64,000 nt of DNA from Cyanobacteria bacterium P01_A01_bin.123 (GTDB lineage: Bacteria > Cyanobacteriota > Cyanobacteriia > Phormidesmidales > Phormidesmidaceae): positions 60,192 through 124,191 of the forward strand of contig JBCBZT010000021.1 of assembly GCA_039815185.1 (NCBI GenBank). Direction: 5' to 3'. Both the position numbers and the translations under genes were made by a program. Each line of letters starts with the position of its first letter. The first letter of the stretch is position 1. This document shows, in pieces, positions 1-14,481 of the stretch. Below the pieces are notes generated by a model that was not told where the DNA came from, made no database searches, and saw only the letters and a program-made list of their open reading frames with translations.

Positions 1-929
1 TCCTCTAAAGAATACTTTTCTCCAAAACCATTGCAGAAAAGAGAACTGTCAATCTGTTCAAGCACCATGACTTTGGAACAATCATGTTTGACACCAGAAC
101 GCCATAAATATCTTAGATCTTGACCTGCCAGATGTTTCCATTGCTTATATAAAATTGTATTGCTTAGAAGCCATCCATCCCTTTCTCCAATGATATAAGA
201 TGGCTTTCCTGACTCTAAGCTTTCGTATACTTCACAGTCATAATTTCCATCGTCAGTGGAGAGTACAAAAAGGCATGCTTCCACTGATGCTCCAAAATAA
301 GCCTTTGTGTCTATTAAATAGACATAGCCTGCGAATCTATGTCCCGAATCCTTTCTGACTTGACGCATGACTTTACGAGCGACTGAGTATTTGCATAAAA
401 CTGCTATAGTTCCTTCTCTCTTTGATAACCACTCTGCATGTTTCAATAGCATCCATTCTGAAATGTCGAAATTCCCTGATCCAGTAATTGCATCAATGCC
501 TCGTCTATTTTGGAAATTGGATTTTGAAGGAATGTTTTTGCTATTGAGAGAACTCAATTCGCTACTCGTAACCCAAGGTGGATTGCCAATTATCAAAATA
601 TAGCCTGTATGCTCTGAAATAATAGATTGCCAATCAGTAGTAAAAAAATCAGATTCTCTGAGTGTTACAGTGGCTGAGTTTGGATATCCAGAAATAGATG
701 ATTTAGCATCCAAGATGTATTCGTTATTTATGTCTAAGCCTATGATCCTTGAGTTCTTAAACTCAGCAAGAGCAGCTCGAATAAATGCTCCTTTCCCACA
801 ACTTGGCTCTATAATAATCTGTGGCTTTATTTTGTGATTGAGCTTTAAAGTCGAAACTACTTTTCGGGCAAGATTTTCAGGGGTTTGAAAATCACCAAAT
901 TGCCACTTTAGCAATGATTTCTTTGCCAT
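1..929 (-). CDS. Type II DNA methyltransferase (amino-MTase, M.NspV-like); 3' end runs off the window
   Basis: Translated by hand from ATG at 929: MAKKSLLKWQFGDFQTP..IIEPSCGKGAF (motif I)..IIGNPPWVT (motif IV). Start directly follows the REase stop (TAAATG). Missing from the ORF track. Confidence 0.88.
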   Translation of the reverse strand, partial: MAKKSLLKWQFGDFQTPENLARKVVSTLKLNHKIKPQIIIEPSCGKGAFIRAALAEFKNSRIIGLDINNEYILDAKSSISGYPNSATVTLRESDFFTTDWQSIISEHTGYILIIGNPPWVTSSELSSLNSKNIPSKSNFQNRRGIDAITGSGNFDISEWMLLKHAEWLSKREGTIAVLCKYSVARKVMRQVRKDSGHRFAGYVYLIDTKAYFGASVEACLFVLSTDDGNYDCEVYESLESGKPSYIIGERDGWLLSNTILYKQWKHLAGQDLRYLWRSGVKHDCSKVMVLEQIDSSLFCNGFGEKYSLE

Positions 930-1583
930 TTATCGAACTCTTAGTATTCCTGAAGTTTTTCCGGTCTTATCAATAACGCGGCGATATTGAAGCCTCCACT
1001 GAAGAGCATTTGACATTGTTAAGTAGCCTTGATTTGGACGCGACTCTAAAATCCTATCAGCCAGTTGATTCGCACCGATTTCATCAACAGGAAGATGTCT
1101 TTCTAATATGAAGGCAACAATATCATCTTTATTTGCATCTCGATCTAAGATCTCCCGTAGTCCTGTGGTAGTTTGAAAGTCAGCAGTTCTAGTTTTGTCT
1201 ACAAAAACAGTGTGTTTGATATCTAACCTTCCAGTTCTATTTTCAGAGTCGTCATATTTTTCATAAACAAATACTAGAAGATGATATCCTAATCCAAAAA
1301 CTTTCTGGGCTGCTGATTTAAATGGGCAAGAAGATTGGGGCTGTTTGATACTTGTCACTTTCATGTCAACTTCGAGACCAGGGAAATCAATACCTGACGC
1401 GGAATTACCTGGTTGATAGTCATAACTTTCGGATAAATATGCCGTAAACTTATGCTCAAGATAAGTGCCGATTGCTTTACCGTCTGTTATGCCATAAAGC
1501 GTAGGTTCGTTATATGCAGTTTCGACTTCAGCAAACTTGGCTGCCTCAATGCGCAAGTATTCGGCTGTCAATTCTCGCTTCAT
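930..1583 (-). CDS. Type II restriction endonuclease, NspV-like family
   Basis: LYGITDGKAIGTYLE..GNSASGIDFP..VDMKVTSIKQPQSSCPF (PD-(D/E)xK-type core) resembles R.NspV-type enzymes; adjacent MTase; AT-rich DNA. Confidence 0.8.
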   Translation of the reverse strand: MKRELTAEYLRIEAAKFAEVETAYNEPTLYGITDGKAIGTYLEHKFTAYLSESYDYQPGNSASGIDFPGLEVDMKVTSIKQPQSSCPFKSAAQKVFGLGYHLLVFVYEKYDDSENRTGRLDIKHTVFVDKTRTADFQTTTGLREILDRDANKDDIVAFILERHLPVDEIGANQLADRILESRPNQGYLTMSNALQWRLQYRRVIDKTGKTSGILRVR

Positions 1584-1809: not shown

Positions 1810-2652
1810 TCAATCAACTGCCCATCTGCAAGTCTCTTTCAGCAGATATTTCAACGACAGATCCATGATGAAGCCAATCACGCCGAGCACAATCAGGCAG
1901 GCGAAGATTGTGTCGGTTTGGAAGAATTTTTGAGCGAGTAAGATGCGTCTACCGAGGCCAGTTTCGGCTGCGACCAGTTCGGCGACAACCACCAGATTCC
2001 AAGAAGAAGCCATATTGATCCGAAAGGCATCGATGATGTTGGGCAACACATAAGGCGTAATCACCTGAAACATCACCTGTCGCCGTTGTCCCCCCAGGGT
2101 ATAGGTCGTCTCTAACAGGTCTTTAGGCACAAACTTAACGGCATCCATAATCATCAGCGTGTTATAGAACACAGTGCCGATGAAAATTAGCGCAATTTTT
2201 GGGGCTTCATCGAGACCCAGATAGATAATCAACAGGGGAGTAAAGGCAGGCGCTGGCATATAGCGAACGATGCCGATAATCGGTTCAAATAGCGATCGCA
2301 GACTGGCAAACGCACCCATGGCAATGCCAATCGGCACTGAAACCAGCCCAGCCAACAAGAAGCCTGCGGCCACCCGCAAAAAGCTGGCGATAGTGTCATC
2401 GAGCAGAAAGCCATCGTTCCAAAGCTTGCCCAAAGCTTGAGCGACCTGTACTGGAGAAGGTAAAAACTTGTCTTCTACCCAGCCCAGACTGGCAATGAGC
2501 CACCAAGCCATGAAGGGGATTGCCACGGATAAAATCACGAGAATAGTGCTCAGCGATCGCGGCACATCTTCCCCAATCCGCCAAAACACAGTGGGTTTGA
2601 GGCTGGGAGATTTTTGAGCTGAGGTTTGAACTGAATTAGAAACAGTAGTCAC
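1810..2652 (-). CDS. ABC transporter permease (NitT/TauT/SsuC type), probable guanidine uptake
   Basis: FLPSP motif, multiple TM helices, EAA-like LETTYTLGG loop, VVAELVAAETGLG. Confidence 0.9.
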   Translation of the reverse strand: MTTVSNSVQTSAQKSPSLKPTVFWRIGEDVPRSLSTILVILSVAIPFMAWWLIASLGWVEDKFLPSPVQVAQALGKLWNDGFLLDDTIASFLRVAAGFLLAGLVSVPIGIAMGAFASLRSLFEPIIGIVRYMPAPAFTPLLIIYLGLDEAPKIALIFIGTVFYNTLMIMDAVKFVPKDLLETTYTLGGQRRQVMFQVITPYVLPNIIDAFRINMASSWNLVVVAELVAAETGLGRRILLAQKFFQTDTIFACLIVLGVIGFIMDLSLKYLLKETCRWAVD

Positions 2653-2863: not shown

Positions 2864-3925
2864 CTACTGCGCCTCGGCGTAAGCCTGAACAAACTGATCA
2901 TCGAGCACTGCTTCTAGATCGGGGGCTTCGGGGATGAAGCCGACGCTTACCATGAAATCAGCCATTTGTTCGGCAGCGTAGGGCATAGACGTCATATCTT
3001 CCCCCGCTTGGAAGGCTTCTAGATTTTCCTCTAGGGTGAAGAACCGCGTTCCTTCTAAGTAAAGCCCAAACTCATCGGCGCTGACGCTGGCCCGTGCCGC
3101 CATAATTTCATTGGCCCGTTCGGTGTTTTCTTCCATAAAGGCCAGAATGTCAAACCAGGTGTTGATAAGAGCCTGCACTTGCTCGGGCTGTTCATCCCGG
3201 AGGGTATGACTCACCACCAGCAAATCGGGAATTGCCCCTGGATATTCCGCAGAACTAACCAGCTCCTTGCTGCCCTCACGGCTTAAGGCCGTTTCCCAGA
3301 AAGGCACCCAACCTGCGAAGGCATCGACCTGCTCGGCGGCGAAGGCGGTTGCCGCAGCCCCGGTCTCTAAGTTTTTGATCTCAACATCATCGCGGCTTAG
3401 CCCTGCATCTTCTAGCGCTAGACTCAGCAAAAAGTCCCCGACGACGCCTTCTTCTAGGGCAATGGACTTACCGGCAAGATCTTCGACGCTGTTGATATCT
3501 CCGGTGACGATGATTTTGTCATTGCCTGCGGAGTTGTCGTTGACCAACACTGCGACTTCTCCATTGACGGCTGCATCTGCAAAGGAAATAGTGTCATTGA
3601 GGGTTTGGCAATTGGCATCCAGTTGTCCTGAGGCCAGCGCTTCCATCGAGGCTAAATACCCATCAAACCAAATCAGTTCAACGTTGGCCCCATTTTTTTC
3701 AAACAGACCTTCTTCCTCTGCGATCGCCCAAGGCCACCAGCCCGCCCAACTGCTGTAGCCCATTTTGATCGCTTCTCCGTCACTGGCCACTACTTCAGTC
3801 TCTAGGGCAGAAGCTGCCTCATCAGGACTGGGGGTCTCTGTTGCTGGCTCACTTCCACACCCAACCGCGATCAGCAGGGTACATACAAAAGAAAGTAAAA
3901 TTGGTAAAAACGAACGACGTCTCAT
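2864..3925 (-). CDS. ABC substrate-binding lipoprotein (NMT1/SsuA-like), probable guanidine binding
   Basis: Lipobox IAVGC; GYSSWAGWWPW; NDNSAGND; operon context. Confidence 0.88.
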   Translation of the reverse strand: MRRRSFLPILLSFVCTLLIAVGCGSEPATETPSPDEAASALETEVVASDGEAIKMGYSSWAGWWPWAIAEEEGLFEKNGANVELIWFDGYLASMEALASGQLDANCQTLNDTISFADAAVNGEVAVLVNDNSAGNDKIIVTGDINSVEDLAGKSIALEEGVVGDFLLSLALEDAGLSRDDVEIKNLETGAAATAFAAEQVDAFAGWVPFWETALSREGSKELVSSAEYPGAIPDLLVVSHTLRDEQPEQVQALINTWFDILAFMEENTERANEIMAARASVSADEFGLYLEGTRFFTLEENLEAFQAGEDMTSMPYAAEQMADFMVSVGFIPEAPDLEAVLDDQFVQAYAEAQ

Positions 3926-3947: not shown

Positions 3948-4631
3948 CTAATTCTCAACTGGCACCCTCACCTGCGATCGCACCCAATCAAACCACGTAT
4001 CCAATCCCTGCCCTGTCTTAGCCGATACGGGAATCACCGTCACTTGGGGGTTCACCTGACGGATGTTGGCTTCGATTTTGGTGATGTCTACATCGACATA
4101 GGGGGCTAGGTCAGTTTTGGTGATCAGCAGCACATCAGCTTCCCGAAACATGACGGGATACTTCAGCGGTTTGTCTTCCCCTTCGGTGACGCTGAGTAGC
4201 GCAACTTTGGCATGTTCGCCCACTTCAAATTCGGCAGGGCAGACTAAGTTACCCACGTTTTCAACCAGCACCAGCTCAAGGGCTGCTGGCTTGTGATTGT
4301 GCTTCAGTTGGTGGATGCCACCCGCGACCATCTTGGCGTCAAGGTGGCAGGCGCGTCCGGTGTTGATGGCGATTACGGGAACACCGTATTGCCGCAGGCG
4401 ATCGGCATCCAGTTCTGTGGTCATGTCGCCTTCAATCACAGCGATTTTGAACTCTCGGCTGAGGGTTGCCAGGGTTTTTTCTAACAGTGCCGTTTTACCT
4501 GCGCCAGGGCTACTCATCAGGTTGAAGCAGGTGATCTGCCACTCGTCAAAGTGCGCCCGGTTATGATCGGCTCCGTCTTGGTTTGCGTGGAGTAGGTTAA
4601 TGCCGAGGGCGGCGTCAAAGGTTTGATGCAT
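3948..4631 (-). CDS. ghaB: HypB-like Ni-insertion GTPase (guanidine hydrolase accessory)
   Basis: SSPGAGKT P-loop, [23 protein letters not shown]; start set at MHQTF behind RBS AAGGAG. Confidence 0.88.
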
Positions 4632-4650: not shown

Positions 4651-6012
4651 CTAAAAGAACTTGAGGTAGCGTTTGATCTCCCAATCTGAAACATGGGTGT
4701 GGTACTCTTCCCACTCCTGCCGTTTGAAATCGGTGTAGGTTTGGTGCATCAGCGGCCCCATGACTGTTTTCGCTAGGGGATCGGCTTCAAAGGCGTCGAT
4801 CGCCTCTGATAAGGTGCGGGGCAATAGATCAATCCCCATGGTCTCTAATTCATCAAGGGAATACTGATACATATTTTCAGTGTGGGGTTCACCGGGATCG
4901 AGCCCTTCGCGAATGCCTTCTAACCCAGCCGCTAAAATCAGCGCCGCCCCGAGATAAAGATTCGTGGAAATGTCGGCAGCACGGCACTCGACTCGGCCCC
5001 CAGCTAGGGGAATACGGAGCATGTTGGTGCGGTTGTTGTTGCCGTAGCAGATGTATACCGGAGCCCAAGTGAAGCCAGACATGCTGCCCTGGCGCACCAG
5101 TCGCTTATAGCTGTTGACCGTAGGACAGGTCACGGCGACGACTGCTTTAGCATGGCGGAGAACCCCTGCAATAAACTGATAACCGAGTTTTGAGAGCTTG
5201 CAACCGTGCGGATCGTCGGGGTCTTCAAATAGGTTTTTGCCGCTGTCCATATCCGCTAAGGACATGTTGTAGTGTGCCCCGCTACCCGTTTTATCCCCGG
5301 CAATTTTTGGCATAAAGGAGGCGAAGTACCCCTGCTGCCGTGCCAATTCCTTCACCATCAATCGAAAGAAGGTGAGCCGATCAGCCATAGTTAGGGCGTT
5401 GGTGTAGGTGAAGTCCGTTTCAAACTGGCCCTGGGCGTCTTCATGATCGAAGGAATACACATCCCAGCCCAGGTCATTCATGGCGCTGACGATGCTGTCT
5501 AGAATCTTGTAGTTGTCCAGTAGGGTAGGGATATCGTAAGCGGCTTTGGGCAAAATGTCGCGATCGCTGATCGGCCCATAGCTGCCATCCGGATGGTCTT
5601 TAAGAATAAAAAACTCAGTCTCGATACCCAGGTTGAAGGTGTAACCCATCTCTGCGGCTTGGGCCAACACTTGCTTCAAGATTGTGCGGCAGCAGGCGTC
5701 AAACGGTTGTCCCGACAGATATAAATCACTGGCAAACCAAGCCACTTCTGAATTCCACGGCAAAATTGTCACAGTGTCGGGATCGGGCATCGCCGCCACT
5801 TCTTCATCGCTGACCTCTTGGGGTATGCCATCAAGGGCTGCCCCCGTAAACAGTTCTGACCCTGCCATCATCTGCCCCAGATGGGCAAGCGGAACCATTT
5901 TGGCTTTGCACATGCCGTGAATATCGACATAGCTGGCCAGGGCATACTTGACGCCTTTAGCCTCTAAGGAAGCTTTGAGTGAAGCAATTTCAGGGGAGAG
6001 GGATGGGCTCAT
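4651..6012 (-). CDS. GlnT/GmaS-type glutamine synthetase family protein
   Basis: [62 protein letters not shown]. Confidence 0.85.
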
Positions 6013-6018
6013 GGCGTT

Positions 6019-6088
6019 GGGGAGAGGGGGATGGGGAGAGAGGGAGAGGGAGAGGGGGAGAAGGGGGGATGGGGAGAAGGGTTAGGGG
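6019..6088. repeat. G/A-rich short tandem repeat tract (STRR-like)
   Basis: ggggagaggggg atggggagagagggagaggggagagggggagaaggggggatggggagaaggg between ghaA and the GS gene. Confidence 0.7.
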
Positions 6089-6471
6089 ACAAGGGCGGCT
6101 TGGTGAGGGGTGTTGGCTCCAGTGGGGGTGTATTCTATGCGATCGATCTTGAGTTCTCGACCGGAACGGATGTCGTCCATGGGGGCTTGGCAGGTGGGGC
6201 AGGCGTATTGCAGGCCAATTACTGGGCGATAGTCTTGCTGGCAAGCATGGCAAAAGGCGATTAGCGGTGTTTCGGCGATCGCCAGTTCTGCCCCTTCGAG
6301 AAACGTGCCTTGGGTTTGCACGTCAAAGGCAAATTGCAGGCTCACGGGTTCTACACAGGTGAACTGCCCGACGACCAAGTGGATTTTGGCAATCTGGGGC
6401 CGCTCGGGTTGAGACTCCCACCAGTCGCGCACGGTGATGATCAAGGCTTTGGTCATGTCAGTTTCGTGCAT
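6082..6471 (-). CDS. ghaA: HypA-like Ni metallochaperone (guanidine hydrolase accessory)
   Basis: MHE N-terminus, CxxC..CPxC, SGREL. Confidence 0.9.
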   Translation of the reverse strand: MHETDMTKALIITVRDWWESQPERPQIAKIHLVVGQFTCVEPVSLQFAFDVQTQGTFLEGAELAIAETPLIAFCHACQQDYRPVIGLQYACPTCQAPMDDIRSGRELKIDRIEYTPTGANTPHQAALVP

Positions 6472-6479
6472 GGCTGGCG

Positions 6480-7676
6480 TTACTCCCAGGGTGAATCAAC
6501 GGTCATGTCGGCTTCTTCGTTGATGTAGGCGGGGGGCTGCGATCGCGGCAGTTGACCCGAAAGCACCAAATGGGCCATCGTGTCGCAAATCACGCGGGTG
6601 GCCATCAGCGCCGTCATATCGCTGACATCATAGGGGGGCGACACTTCTACGACTTCGATGCCGCACACGGGCACTGCCTGCACAATCCGCTTGAGTAAGT
6701 ACAAGGCTTCGCGAGGCATCAGCCCACCGGGTTCTGGCCAACCTGTGCCGGGGACAAAGCCAGCGTCAATGCAGTCGATATCAAAGCTGATCCACACACA
6801 ATCAGTGCCGTCGGTAGCTTTAGCGATAGCAAAGTCGGCGGCGGCATCCAGGCCCATTTCAGTAATGTCGGTGACGGTGAGAATGTTGGTGGCCCGTTCG
6901 CGGCACACTTTCACCCCTTGACGCGGCACCTGCCAACCGCCAATACCAAGCTGCACCAGGTTTTTAGCCGGGGCATTGGCCATGTTGGTAGCGTGGAACC
7001 AAGGGCAAGTGTGCATCCGTTCATCCAGATCAGTTTCCTGGGTATCCACATGGCGATCAAAGTGGATGATACCCACTTTCTTATCCCCCAGGTGGCGGCA
7101 AATGCCCCGCACCGTGGGGAAACCAATGGAGTGGTCACCGCCCAGCACGATCGGAAAAGCACCCGAACTAAAAATGTGGGCAATGCCCTTAGAGATTTGG
7201 TCAAACGACTTTTCGTTGTTGGCCGGAATGGTGAAGATATCTCCCACATCACATAGGGTGATTTGTTCGCGCAAGTCCACCCCCAATTCAAAGTTGTAGG
7301 GCGTGTAGAGCGCTGAGATGCGGCGAATCCCTTGGGGGCCAAAACGAGTCCCTGGTCGATAGGTGGTGCCTGAGTCGTGGGGTACGCCCACGATGGCCAC
7401 ATCGTATTCGCCGACCTTGTGCACGTCTTCAACATAGGGGGCTTTCAAAAAAGTATTGATGCCCGCATAGTGGGGCAATTCTCCGCGCGAGAAGGTGGAA
7501 ATGCTGCGATCGCGGATACTCTCAGCCGCTTCTAGACCGAACGCTAACCCTTGAGAAACTTCCTGTTGCCAACCCGTCATCGGCAGCTGGTTTTCTTTGG
7601 CGAGGGCACGATTGGCTTCAGTTGAGTCGGGCCTGTCCGAATCAGAAGGCGTTGGTGTGTTTGGCATATCTGTCAT
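6480..7676 (-). CDS. gdmH: Ni-dependent guanidine hydrolase (ureohydrolase family)
   Basis: GGDHS, HFDRHVD, HTCPW, SFDIDCID, PGTGWPEPGG; next to HypA/HypB and a guanidine riboswitch; start set at MTDM behind GGAGG. Confidence 0.9.
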   Translation of the reverse strand: MTDMPNTPTPSDSDRPDSTEANRALAKENQLPMTGWQQEVSQGLAFGLEAAESIRDRSISTFSRGELPHYAGINTFLKAPYVEDVHKVGEYDVAIVGVPHDSGTTYRPGTRFGPQGIRRISALYTPYNFELGVDLREQITLCDVGDIFTIPANNEKSFDQISKGIAHIFSSGAFPIVLGGDHSIGFPTVRGICRHLGDKKVGIIHFDRHVDTQETDLDERMHTCPWFHATNMANAPAKNLVQLGIGGWQVPRQGVKVCRERATNILTVTDITEMGLDAAADFAIAKATDGTDCVWISFDIDCIDAGFVPGTGWPEPGGLMPREALYLLKRIVQAVPVCGIEVVEVSPPYDVSDMTALMATRVICDTMAHLVLSGQLPRSQPPAYINEEADMTVDSPWE

Positions 7677-7734
7677 AGCTGATGCGAATCCTCCAATCTT
7701 GACGAGCAGGCAAAACATAAGTGGGCGGATAATT

Positions 7735-7791
7735 ATAAAAGCCCGGGAGAGTGTGGGCGCAGTGCGCTCCCATGCTCTCCCGGGCTTTTAT
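7735..7791 (-). terminator. Riboswitch expression-platform terminator
   Basis: 17-bp perfect stem ATAAAAGCCCGGGAGAG / CTCTCCCGGGCTTTTAT that sequesters the aptamer 3' end. Confidence 0.85.
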
Positions 7792-7930
7792 CCCGCCGTG
7801 TAACCAGTATTTGAAGAATACTACCTTGCCGCTGGGGGTGGTGAAGTAACCTTCCACTGGCTGCTTCTCTTGGACCAGACATTTAGGCGACGAAACGTCT
7901 TTTCTACCTAAATCGGAACCCTAGAAGCCA
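7775..7930 (-). ncRNA. Guanidine-I (ykkC-yxkD) riboswitch
   Basis: Minus strand CTAGGGTTCCG..GTCTGGTCCAAGAG..ACACGGCGGGATAAAAGCCCGGGAG matches the ykkC consensus; directly upstream of gdmH. Confidence 0.93.
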
Positions 7931-8115
7931 ATAACCCAAATTCGGCCTCGAACCGGTAACTTTCCCTGATCAGGGTTCCATAGTTCTACGGCCAAACCGA
8001 GTTAAATTCAATTGTGATTTAGGTCATGGCCAAACACTCATCGATTATGCATTGCTGCCCGACGCTGCACCATGCCCATGCCTTCAATAGATATCAAGGG
8101 GGTAGACCACAAGGG

Positions 8116-8129
8116 GTATCAGAAACTAC
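8116..8129. promoter_or_regulatory. NtcA binding box
   Basis: GTA-tcagaaac-TAC (perfect GTA-N8-TAC) upstream of the riboswitch; imperfect -10 (TATCTA) 22 nt downstream on the minus strand. Confidence 0.7.
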
Positions 8130-13215: not shown

Positions 13216-14481
13216 ATGGTTGCGCTACTTTCACCTTTAATCATTGACCACAACCGTCTGGATGAGCGGATTCAGCGGCTGGCTAAAATTGGTCGCCAAC
13301 CCAATGGCAGCATTCGTCGGTTGGCCTTCACGCCAGAAATTGTGCGGGCGCGATATTTGGTGCAGCAGTGGATGGTGGAAGCCGGTATGGGTGTCCATGT
13401 TGATGCGGCAGGCAACTTGATTGGACGTTACGAGGGCACCGATCCGACTGCGCCAGCTTTAGCCACCGGGTCGCACATTGATACTGTCCCTTCGGGCGGC
13501 AAATTTGACGGGGTATTGGGGGTGCTCGCAGGGATTGAGGCGGTGCAAATGCTGCGGCAAACTCAGCAGCGCCTCACCCACCCGCTTGAAGTGATTATTT
13601 TCACCGATGAAGAAAATACGATGATTGGCGCGCAGGCGATCGCGGGTACGGCCTATACCCAAGATCCAGAACGCTATCGATCCAAAGCGGGAGAATCGAT
13701 CCAAGACTGTTTAGAGTTAATCGGCGGTAATTGGGATGAGTTGGCAACTGCCCAGCGATCGCGGGCTGATATGGCTGCTTTTATTGAACTGCATGTAGAG
13801 CAGGGAGCGGTCTTAGAGCACTACCAAAAAGAAATTGGCGTGGTGCAGGGCGTTGTCGGCATGCAGCGCAAAATCATTACCATCACCGGGCAGGCTAACC
13901 ATGCGGGCACGACGCCCATGGACATGCGTCAAGATGCCCTGGTGACCGCCGCTGAAATTGTGTTGGCAGTGCGCGATCTGGCCCATGATTTTCCCAAGAG
14001 TCAACCCGTCGCGACGGTGGGTCATTTAGATGTTCTCCCTAATGCCGTCAATATTGTGCCCGGTCGGGTCGAGTTGTCAGTAGACATGCGGGATTTGTCT
14101 GAAGCCTGCCTGCATGAGATGGTGAGTCGTTTGGAAGCAAAAATCGATGCGATCGCTGCCAAAAATCGCACGCCTGTCCAGATCAATCCTGTGCTTTGTG
14201 TTGAACCCACCCTTGCTGCCCCTCAAATTCAGACCACGATTGAAGGCATCTGCCAAAGGTTAAATCTAAGCTACTGTTCGCTACCGAGTCGTGCCGGACA
14301 CGATGCCCTGGAGATGGGACGGATTACGGATATGGGGATGATTTTTGTGCCGAGTCAGCACGGTATCAGCCACTCTGAAGCAGAGTATACGTCGCCGGAG
14401 CAATGTACGGCTGGGGCTAATGTTTTGCTACAAACGTTTTTGGAATTGGACAAGCTGTATGCGGCCAATCTTAGGTTTTAG
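13216..14481 (+). CDS. M20 Zn-dependent amidohydrolase (allantoate amidohydrolase / N-carbamoylase family)
   Basis: GSHIDTVP.GG.FDG, DEE, ELHVEQG, NHAGTTPM, AGHDA, GISHS. Confidence 0.92.
   Translation: MVALLSPLIIDHNRLDERIQRLAKIGRQPNGSIRRLAFTPEIVRARYLVQQWMVEAGMGVHVDAAGNLIGRYEGTDPTAPALATGSHIDTVPSGGKFDGVLGVLAGIEAVQMLRQTQQRLTHPLEVIIFTDEENTMIGAQAIAGTAYTQDPERYRSKAGESIQDCLELIGGNWDELATAQRSRADMAAFIELHVEQGAVLEHYQKEIGVVQGVVGMQRKIITITGQANHAGTTPMDMRQDALVTAAEIVLAVRDLAHDFPKSQPVATVGHLDVLPNAVNIVPGRVELSVDMRDLSEACLHEMVSRLEAKIDAIAAKNRTPVQINPVLCVEPTLAAPQIQTTIEGICQRLNLSYCSLPSRAGHDALEMGRITDMGMIFVPSQHGISHSEAEYTSPEQCTAGANVLLQTFLELDKLYAANLRF

Follow-up and report, generated by a model that had tools for sequence, protein, structure and literature searches.

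Recognition of guanidine as a source of nitrogen is recent, and the new enzymes involved (GdmH, CgdAB, MgdH/MgdL) were traced mainly by way of its riboswitch regulons. The closest described locus is the gdmH-ghaA-ghaB/gimABC operon of Synechocystis sp. PCC 6803 (PMC12704784), with which an operon in the stretch analysed here (64,000 nucleotides of contig JBCBZT010000021.1 from Cyanobacteria bacterium P01_A01_bin.123, hereafter the window) shares the riboswitch class, the hydrolase, the nickel chaperones, the importer and the gene order, together with an NtcA-type box upstream. Unlike the Synechocystis locus, it carries an additional gene between ghaA and ghaB, which we call X, and a MetX-like hydrolase gene at its end. 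X encodes a ligase of the GlnT/GmaS family, described members of which are RhGmaS of Rhodovulum (PDB 7CQL; PMC7948447), the 'glutamate--methylamine ligase' of PDB 9QUR and rhizobial GlnT, and whose profile, TIGR03105, is named 'type III glutamate--ammonia ligase'; X has in common with GmaS the catalytic Asp, Glu and Arg, the metal ligands and the Trp flap.

Our central proposal, to which we would give a probability of roughly 0.4, is that X uses ATP to join glutamate to guanidine or methylguanidine, in partnership with an amide hydrolase, rather than to ammonium. This reading, derived from sequence comparison, fits control by a switch that senses intracellular guanidine, the presence of X in both known guanidine pathways, the character of its amine pocket and its amide-hydrolase partners. 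Guanidine itself as the acceptor, which we rank first, was absent from the hypotheses of a preliminary description of the locus. The features on which the argument draws are the following (L, C and G numbers are our handles for loci, contigs and genomes).

7775..7935, minus strand: Guanidine-I riboswitch aptamer (RF00442, 73.5 bits against a cut-off of 63)
7737..7789, minus strand: predicted terminator hairpin, pairing with the aptamer 3' end and followed by a U-rich run
8116..8129, no strand assigned: perfect NtcA-type box GTA-N8-TAC, a candidate nitrogen-starvation input, about 180 nt upstream of the aptamer
6480..7676 (longest open reading frame, ORF, to 7718), minus strand: gdmH, Ni-dependent guanidine hydrolase (7ESR match, GdmH motif, ribosome-binding site before 7676)
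6082..6471, minus strand: ghaA/hypA, HypA-type nickel chaperone (TIGR00100, 118.4 bits against a cut-off of 88.1)
4651..6012, minus strand: X, GlnT/GmaS-family gamma-glutamyl ligase of a distinct subfamily (453 aa, TIGR03105)
3948..4631 (likely start 4631), minus strand: ghaB/hypB, HypB-type nickel chaperone (TIGR00073, 314.8 bits against 121.2)
2864..3925, minus strand: GimA-type binding protein of the importer (profile match and likely start)
1810..2652, minus strand: ABC permease, gimB-type (sequence match)
930..1583, minus strand: type II restriction endonuclease (NF052465, 346 bits against a cut-off of 290)
window up to 929: methyltransferase-like ORF, partner of the restriction endonuclease
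C101:58661-59434 of the genome contig, outside the window, same strand as the operon: ATPase of the importer
C101:57639-58646 (L268), outside the window, same strand: alpha/beta hydrolase of MetX-like type, 15 nt downstream of the ATPase

Read from the riboswitch, the operon runs gdmH, ghaA, X, ghaB, binding protein and permease, with spacers of 8, 69, 19, 22 and 211 nt counted from the likely starts, and goes on past the window edge, beyond the restriction-modification pair, to the ATPase and the MetX-like hydrolase. The 69-nt spacer before X (6013-6081) is pyrimidine-rich, repeat-like and without a Shine-Dalgarno sequence. A sequence scan of the gdmH-ghaB interval found no minus-strand site resembling a terminator, and the single candidate internal promoter for X, a 9-of-12 sigma-70-like site inside ghaA, stands at chance level (5 found against 5.1 expected); we infer that X lies on the riboswitch transcript and would be guanidine-inducible. 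The aptamer is the sole Rfam match in the window, and the hairpin 3' of it has a long stem in both the minimum-free-energy and the centroid structure (z = -4.55), its pairing with the aptamer 3' end being predicted to give the layout of a transcriptional ON-switch. NtcA-type boxes are weak evidence alone, 3 having been found in the window against 4.2 expected by chance; an exact box nevertheless lies 193-309 nt before the aptamer's 3' hairpin in 15/15 related operons examined. A second guanidine-I riboswitch in the genome (G000:C43:95915-96038, L147) precedes a sodium:solute symporter gene, whose product may be another guanidine importer.

X itself has no internal stop and matches TIGR03105 at 566.7 bits (cut-off 469.6) over profile positions 2-434 of 435, while falling below the cut-off of the GlnA model TIGR00653 (336 bits against 429). 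Its nearest solved structures are the methylamine ligases 9QUR (E 2.5e-120) and RhGmaS (E 2.7e-92). On a mapping that assumes a 20-residue tag on the PDB chain, X retains the RhGmaS catalytic residues D177, E186 and R312 and, more broadly, its catalytic, metal and glutamate ligands (D189, E198, R328, E131, E133, E191, H247, E342, R304 and R344 of X). A broken-enzyme reading is rejected on these grounds, and an AlphaFold model of the L076 homologue has a pLDDT of 81.7 and the expected secondary structure. The preliminary description, which had placed an intact GlnT-family gene between ghaA and ghaB on the same strand of a riboswitch operon, thus holds in respect of position, integrity and family.

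The amine pocket is where X departs from its relatives. The ammonium-binding Asp50' and the Glu flap of glutamine synthetase (GS) are replaced by Thr56 and Trp316 in 89/89 X sequences, and of the seven methylamine-pocket residues of RhGmaS (Y147, Q175, D177, E179, E186, N188, K30') five are kept, the two changes, S187 for Q175 and D200 for N188, being present in 89/89 X sequences and in 81/81 metagenomic copies scored. The loop from the neighbouring subunit carries E53, T56 and A58, again in 89/89, whereas 42/42 other GlnT/GmaS sequences have Q at 187, N at 200, A at 53 and F at 58. In RhGmaS numbering the invariant substitutions are Q175S, N188D, A45E, A48T and F50A. By sequence, then, X is an intact gamma-glutamyl ligase whose pocket is neither that of GS nor that of GmaS, being roomier and more acidic than the latter and lacking the ammonium residues of the former. 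A tree of 146 GS-like proteins from the fetched loci and this genome, the comparison with GmaS, GlnT and GlnA that the preliminary description had proposed, places X and relatives 61-89% identical to it in a clade of their own, which includes neither the mgsABC-adjacent GmaS of alpha- and betaproteobacteria nor the other GlnT encoded in this genome. The latter (contig C6) is 43% identical to X and has a canonical methylamine pocket.

The X subfamily is real, widespread and uncharacterised. A GTDB scan gave 169 stretches with X, the best 80 of which were kept, and a metagenome scan at least 587 confirmed stretches, of which 80 were kept, so that a strain-specific accident is rejected. These locus sets include related and some repeated genomes and have flanks of 2 to 17 kb, and the genomes counted below are kin and hence not independent, so that p-values computed from them are overstated; riboswitches at loci were scored by motif pattern, with which Rfam agreed at 10/10 loci checked (9 positive, 1 negative). 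Among 201 picocyanobacterial genomes, X occurs in 60 and gdmH in 102; all 60 carriers of X have gdmH, within 4 kb in 58 (the remaining 2 lie at contig ends), and X is found in 0/99 genomes lacking gdmH. In this genome's family (131 genomes), X occurs in 69, gdmH in 107 and both in 64, the 5 genomes with X and without gdmH being fragmented assemblies. At least 31 of these 69 have a riboswitch-led X, which follows gdmH-ghaA in 11 and stands directly behind the switch in 20. The latter arrangement, with no gene between X and an intact riboswitch and terminator, occurs in 20 genomes among the matches listed, all of one genus; there gdmH lies elsewhere behind a second riboswitch in 5/5 tested, implying that X kept a switch of its own, and three of these separate gdmH loci read gdmH-ghaA-ghaB without X.

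In the two locus sets, the fetched flank includes a riboswitch, gdmH or a carboxylase gene at 38/80 GTDB and 28/80 metagenomic loci, with the riboswitch directly before X in 16/80 and 1/80, respectively. X is patchy in a sample of the cyanobacterial phylum (7/401), and outside cyanobacteria it appears in riboswitch-led guanidine-carboxylase operons (L076, L188, L200), in a further carboxylase context (L193) and beside TIGR03427 binding proteins, a TetR regulator and a MetX-like hydrolase. In 8 of the 11 gdmH operons, as in L188 and L200, the reference labels include no accessory hydrolase or oxygenase, which leaves guanidine and ammonium as the shared compounds. Guanidine-linked loci occupy most deep branches of a tree of 167 X sequences and methylamine-linked loci few. 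The suspected functional tie between the gene and guanidine therefore extends well beyond one locus, and the survey for the same insertion found it recurring across genomes. A profile search of representatives gave no added context for X; two X copies, in tandem or flanking an Amt gene, occur at L010, L074, L249 and L250, and the culture-collection records PCC 7104 and PCC 6406 carry X.

The neighbours of X are those of an orthodox guanidine operon. GdmH, an arginase-family protein, matches Synechocystis GdmH 7ESR at E 2e-243, its core being nearly identical almost residue for residue; the published motif is matched at 28/29 positions and the nickel chaperones adjoin. An altered specificity of X-linked GdmH is rejected: 16 linked and 40 unlinked enzymes differ at 14 positions, mostly conservative or N-terminal and none tied to the active site. 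In the binding protein, W60, W63, D136 and D234 correspond, by an offset of +1 and not by alignment, to W59, W62, D135 and D233 of Synechocystis GimA, and W206 stands, by the same offset, where GimA F205 is named.

Amide hydrolases are frequent partners of X among the metagenomic loci, a MetX-like one in 45/80 and a creatininase-family one in 17/80; isochorismatase-like and metallo-lactamase-fold hydrolases also occur near X. The MetX-like protein here, present in a single copy and assigned to PRK07581 by similarity to the L051 protein, has as best PDB matches 5D6O and 5E4Y, labelled homoserine O-acetyltransferase, which we take to be small-ester hydrolases. Its family occurs in 99/131 related genomes (set against any GlnT, 92 have both, 8 and 7 one alone and 24 neither) and tracks gdmH as well as GlnT, and is not specific to X. 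Because it was not found in the two family genomes with a close mgsC, it may do the work of N-methylglutamate synthase downstream of GlnT enzymes. A stand-alone route of X with creatininase in genomes lacking both known pathways was considered and rejected, 5/5 such genomes tested being without gdmH but with cgd genes of the carboxylase route.

Rieske oxygenase genes are present in many related operons, and one of the carnitine-oxygenase-like type ends many gdmH operons whether X is present or not (L001, L004, L143-L145, L269-L272); by analogy with MgdH, it is a candidate methylguanidine demethylase. A Rieske oxygenase after such operons in picocyanobacteria is already in print (bioRxiv 10.1101/2022.08.17.504260). 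An obligate ligase-Rieske pair is rejected, since X-less gdmH operons can contain the gene and the genome studied here holds no close copy.

Under our preferred reading, the operon would be read through when nitrogen starvation, acting by way of NtcA, and intracellular guanidine coincide, and the ABC importer would concentrate guanidine in the cell. X would then form gamma-glutamyl phosphate and move the glutamyl group to a guanidinium nitrogen, yielding an acylguanidine and so serving as a trap or carrier of guanidine, which the partner amide hydrolase (MetX-like here, creatininase-family elsewhere) would later free for the slow, low-affinity GdmH. Where a Rieske oxygenase and a short-chain dehydrogenase/reductase (SDR) are present, the tagged compound may be demethylated first, as in aniline-type systems. 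Creatinine is a cyclic acylguanidine, and creatininase-family partners fit such a product for that reason. A bolder version, which we regard as doubtful, holds that X is the first enzyme to acylate free guanidine with glutamate and, with its partner hydrolase, forms a third, ATP-driven assimilation route (guanidine + glutamate + ATP -> glutamine + urea), which would cost no more than GdmH plus glutamine synthetase, be effective at far lower guanidine and extend across cyanobacteria, proteobacteria and actinobacteria-like contigs.

A number of considerations count against guanidine as the acceptor. Guanidine is a poor nucleophile (pKa about 13.6) and its acylation is chemically demanding; we know of no enzyme of the GlnT/GmaS family that acylates it. 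A ligase and a hydrolase without an intervening step amount to a futile cycle unless trapping pays. The Synechocystis operon does without X, as do 43 of the 107 family genomes with gdmH, and a Rieske gene is found in gdmH operons of genomes without X (G419, G422) while none stands in the operon studied here or matches at E 1e-30 in its genome. No riboswitch, gdmH or carboxylase gene appears in the fetched flank, which is short in some cases, of 42/80 GTDB and 52/80 metagenomic loci. In 18/80 GTDB loci X has no riboswitch and a class-I glutamine amidotransferase as its partner; a second GlnT, together with alcohol and aldehyde dehydrogenases, is often found alongside, and several of these loci belong to gene clusters that contain tmm, tdm, dmmABC, amine oxidase, Amt or mgsABC. 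D200 and the small residue at 187 also resemble classical GS. Lastly, X is a mosaic: residues ~120-240 group with the amidotransferase-linked paralogues that lack a riboswitch (support 0.973) and the rest with riboswitch-led copies (0.993), which would most simply reflect recombination between interchangeable enzymes and suggests that the guanidine and amidotransferase contexts share a substrate.

That mosaic centre, with its origin in a methylated-amine and amidotransferase context, leads to the alternative that survives best, one we consider possible, if on balance unlikely: that X glutamylates methylamine or dimethylamine, derived from methylated guanidines or from trimethylamine breakdown, after which an oxygenase and the MetX- or creatininase-like hydrolase strip the methyl group and leave glutamine. 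The gene names cgdAB, tdm, tmm, dmm and mgs are here applied to family or BLAST matches. X keeps all GmaS catalytic residues and most of the methylamine pocket, lies beside methylated-amine genes at L010, L011, L249, L253, L282 and L283, and has a roomier pocket into which dimethylamine would fit (Km of RhGmaS for it, 16 mM; PMC7948447). Dimethylguanidine hydrolases are known (PMC11399263), and a methylguanidine amidinohydrolase is recorded in older work (PMC12623156). This genome has tmm and a tdm-like gene but nothing close to dmm or mgs; across the family sample tdm-like genes occur in 66/131 genomes, while dmmC was found in 0 and a close mgsC in 2, so that the methylamines need some other route, which favours this alternative. 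Against it, a search of this genome for N-methylglutamate synthase was negative, the best mgsC match being 36-38% identical. Moreover, 22/69 X-bearing genomes lack tdm and 19/66 tdm genomes lack X, and a canonical-pocket GlnT accompanies X in most genomes that carry it, which makes X unnecessary for methylamine. The minimal operons contain no evident methylguanidine-splitting enzyme and the GdmH of the present operon is canonical; a Nitrospira GdmH homologue gave no urea from methylguanidine (PMC11410670), and the characterised methylguanidine route frees formaldehyde rather than methylamine, under a Gd-I switch that neither binds nor responds to methylguanidine (PMC12508155). The absence of X from the picocyanobacteria without gdmH would also go unexplained. 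Of the preliminary suggestion that X uses an amine released from methylated guanidines, what stands is that some copies lie in methylated-amine clusters; the canonical GdmH, the two altered pocket residues, the missing N-methylglutamate synthase and these published observations weaken the remainder.

The related genomes also hold methylated-amine loci of other kinds. A tmm gene with a shortened tdm-like gene and no dmmC match recurs (G000:C76:26873-39185, L148; L011, L281, L283, L286), an apparent trimethylamine pathway with a non-dmm step for dimethylamine, although L011 has dmmABC-like genes. The second GlnT of this genome (G000:C6:82110-88588, L150) stands with an iron alcohol dehydrogenase, an aldehyde dehydrogenase, a divergent Amt gene with a small conserved ORF and a nearby peptidase C26, a set that looks like an amino-alcohol gamma-glutamylation pathway. 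A trio of desaturase-like, MetX-like and canonical-pocket GlnT genes recurs in cyanobacteria (L154, L156, L143, L256), sometimes on plasmids and sometimes right after the guanidine operon. Two cyanobacteria have mgsABC (L287, L288; G425, G427), with sarcosine-oxidase-like genes alongside in G425.

It is unlikely that X glutamylates another small imported nitrogen compound, such as hydroxyguanidine, an amidine or a urea derivative, with guanidine as the cue. Several pocket types are represented among the binding proteins encoded next to X, the accessory hydrolases are varied, and Gammaproteobacteria-like contigs pair X with the TIGR03427 binding protein, TetR regulator and MetX-like hydrolase, often with no riboswitch; yet no single compound is indicated, and the binding protein here keeps residues named for guanidine binding.

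We find it less credible still that X is a dedicated glutamine synthetase capturing the ammonium released by GdmH or by the carboxylase route. Ammonium is the sole product that all contexts share (GdmH, carboxylase, amine oxidase, Amt), the minimal operons consist of nothing but X and a pathway that releases ammonium, and RhGmaS has an equal kcat for ammonium and methylamine (PMC7948447). Against this, Thr56 and Trp316 stand in place of the ammonium-binding Asp and the flap Glu, as in GmaS, the RhGmaS Km is 8.7 mM for ammonium and 27 micromolar for methylamine (~300-fold; PMC7948447), glnA is present in the genome, and pairing with a glutamyl-amide hydrolase is the pattern of organic-amine ligases (PMC11335346). 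Ammonium capture, one of the two roles proposed at the outset, is disfavoured accordingly.

That X is a passenger of nitrogen-scavenging islands with no functional tie to guanidine is very improbable: some genomes do have a canonical GlnT module close to gdmH (G441, L143, L256), and guanidine operons do take insertions such as restriction or toxin-antitoxin genes, but X stands first behind an intact switch and terminator in the 20 genomes listed, is limited among picocyanobacteria to genomes with gdmH and turns up in two guanidine pathways that are unrelated to each other.

One such insertion splits the present importer. The restriction endonuclease and methyltransferase-like ORF (window 1-1583; C101:59567-61774) separate the permease from the ATPase, and are a strain-level insertion because a contig of another run joins the permease directly to the ATPase start. 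Elsewhere, guanidine operons contain HipA-like and HIRAN genes (L050:5829-7552) or a TumE-type toxin-antitoxin pair (L140:8539-9254). Five kb from the operon here, an allantoate-amidohydrolase-family enzyme (13216-14481, plus strand) narrowly misses the cut-off for ErtE, N-carbamyl-glutamate amidohydrolase.

These findings identify the X subfamily as a common and unexplained member of the guanidine regulon, present in 60 of the 102 gdmH-bearing picocyanobacteria sampled. Since its database label is glutamine synthetase or GmaS, and gmaS serves as a marker of methylamine use (PMC7948447), part of the gmaS methylamine-use signal may be mis-assigned. If our proposal is true, microbes would harvest nitrogen by way of a step not described so far, the tagging of guanidine, or of a methylated guanidine, with glutamate.

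With regard to earlier reports, full-text searches, with subscription papers and preprint supplements outside their scope, found no description of such a ligase in guanidine operons beyond a remark on Synechococcus WH8020, whose gdmH is flanked by a urea transporter and a 'GS' that may or may not be of this subfamily (PMC12704784). The places shown of the proteomics supplement of PMC12508155 have no row named type III or methylamine ligase, the presence of X in that organism not having been checked. Compared with GmaS, X belongs to a separate clade, bears five invariant changes, is placed under a guanidine riboswitch and is not accompanied by an N-methylglutamate synthase in this genome. The aniline and 1-naphthylamine systems AtdA1-A5 and NpaA1-A5 (PMC11335346) offer a similar logic, in that a GS-like ligase tags the amine with glutamate, an amidotransferase-like hydrolase reverses the step and a Rieske oxygenase acts on the tagged compound, and X often has such partners; their substrates, however, are aromatic amines, and the operon and genome considered here have no Rieske partner. 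MgdH/MgdL of Vreelandella boliviensis, which demethylate methylguanidine (PMC12508155), and the dimethylguanidine hydrolase DmgH (PMC11399263) are likewise extra enzymes for methylated guanidines in guanidine-riboswitch or nickel-ureohydrolase operons, but they are a 2-oxoglutarate dioxygenase with a lyase and a heteromeric ureohydrolase, respectively, with no ATP-dependent glutamyl ligase described for either. The guanidine carboxylase pathway (Gca, CgdAB, AtzF) already performs an ATP-driven N-acylation of guanidine, the chemistry we propose for X, which is itself found inside such operons (L076, L188, L200), whereas the carboxylase acts by biotin-dependent carboxylation and has a fold unrelated to that of X.

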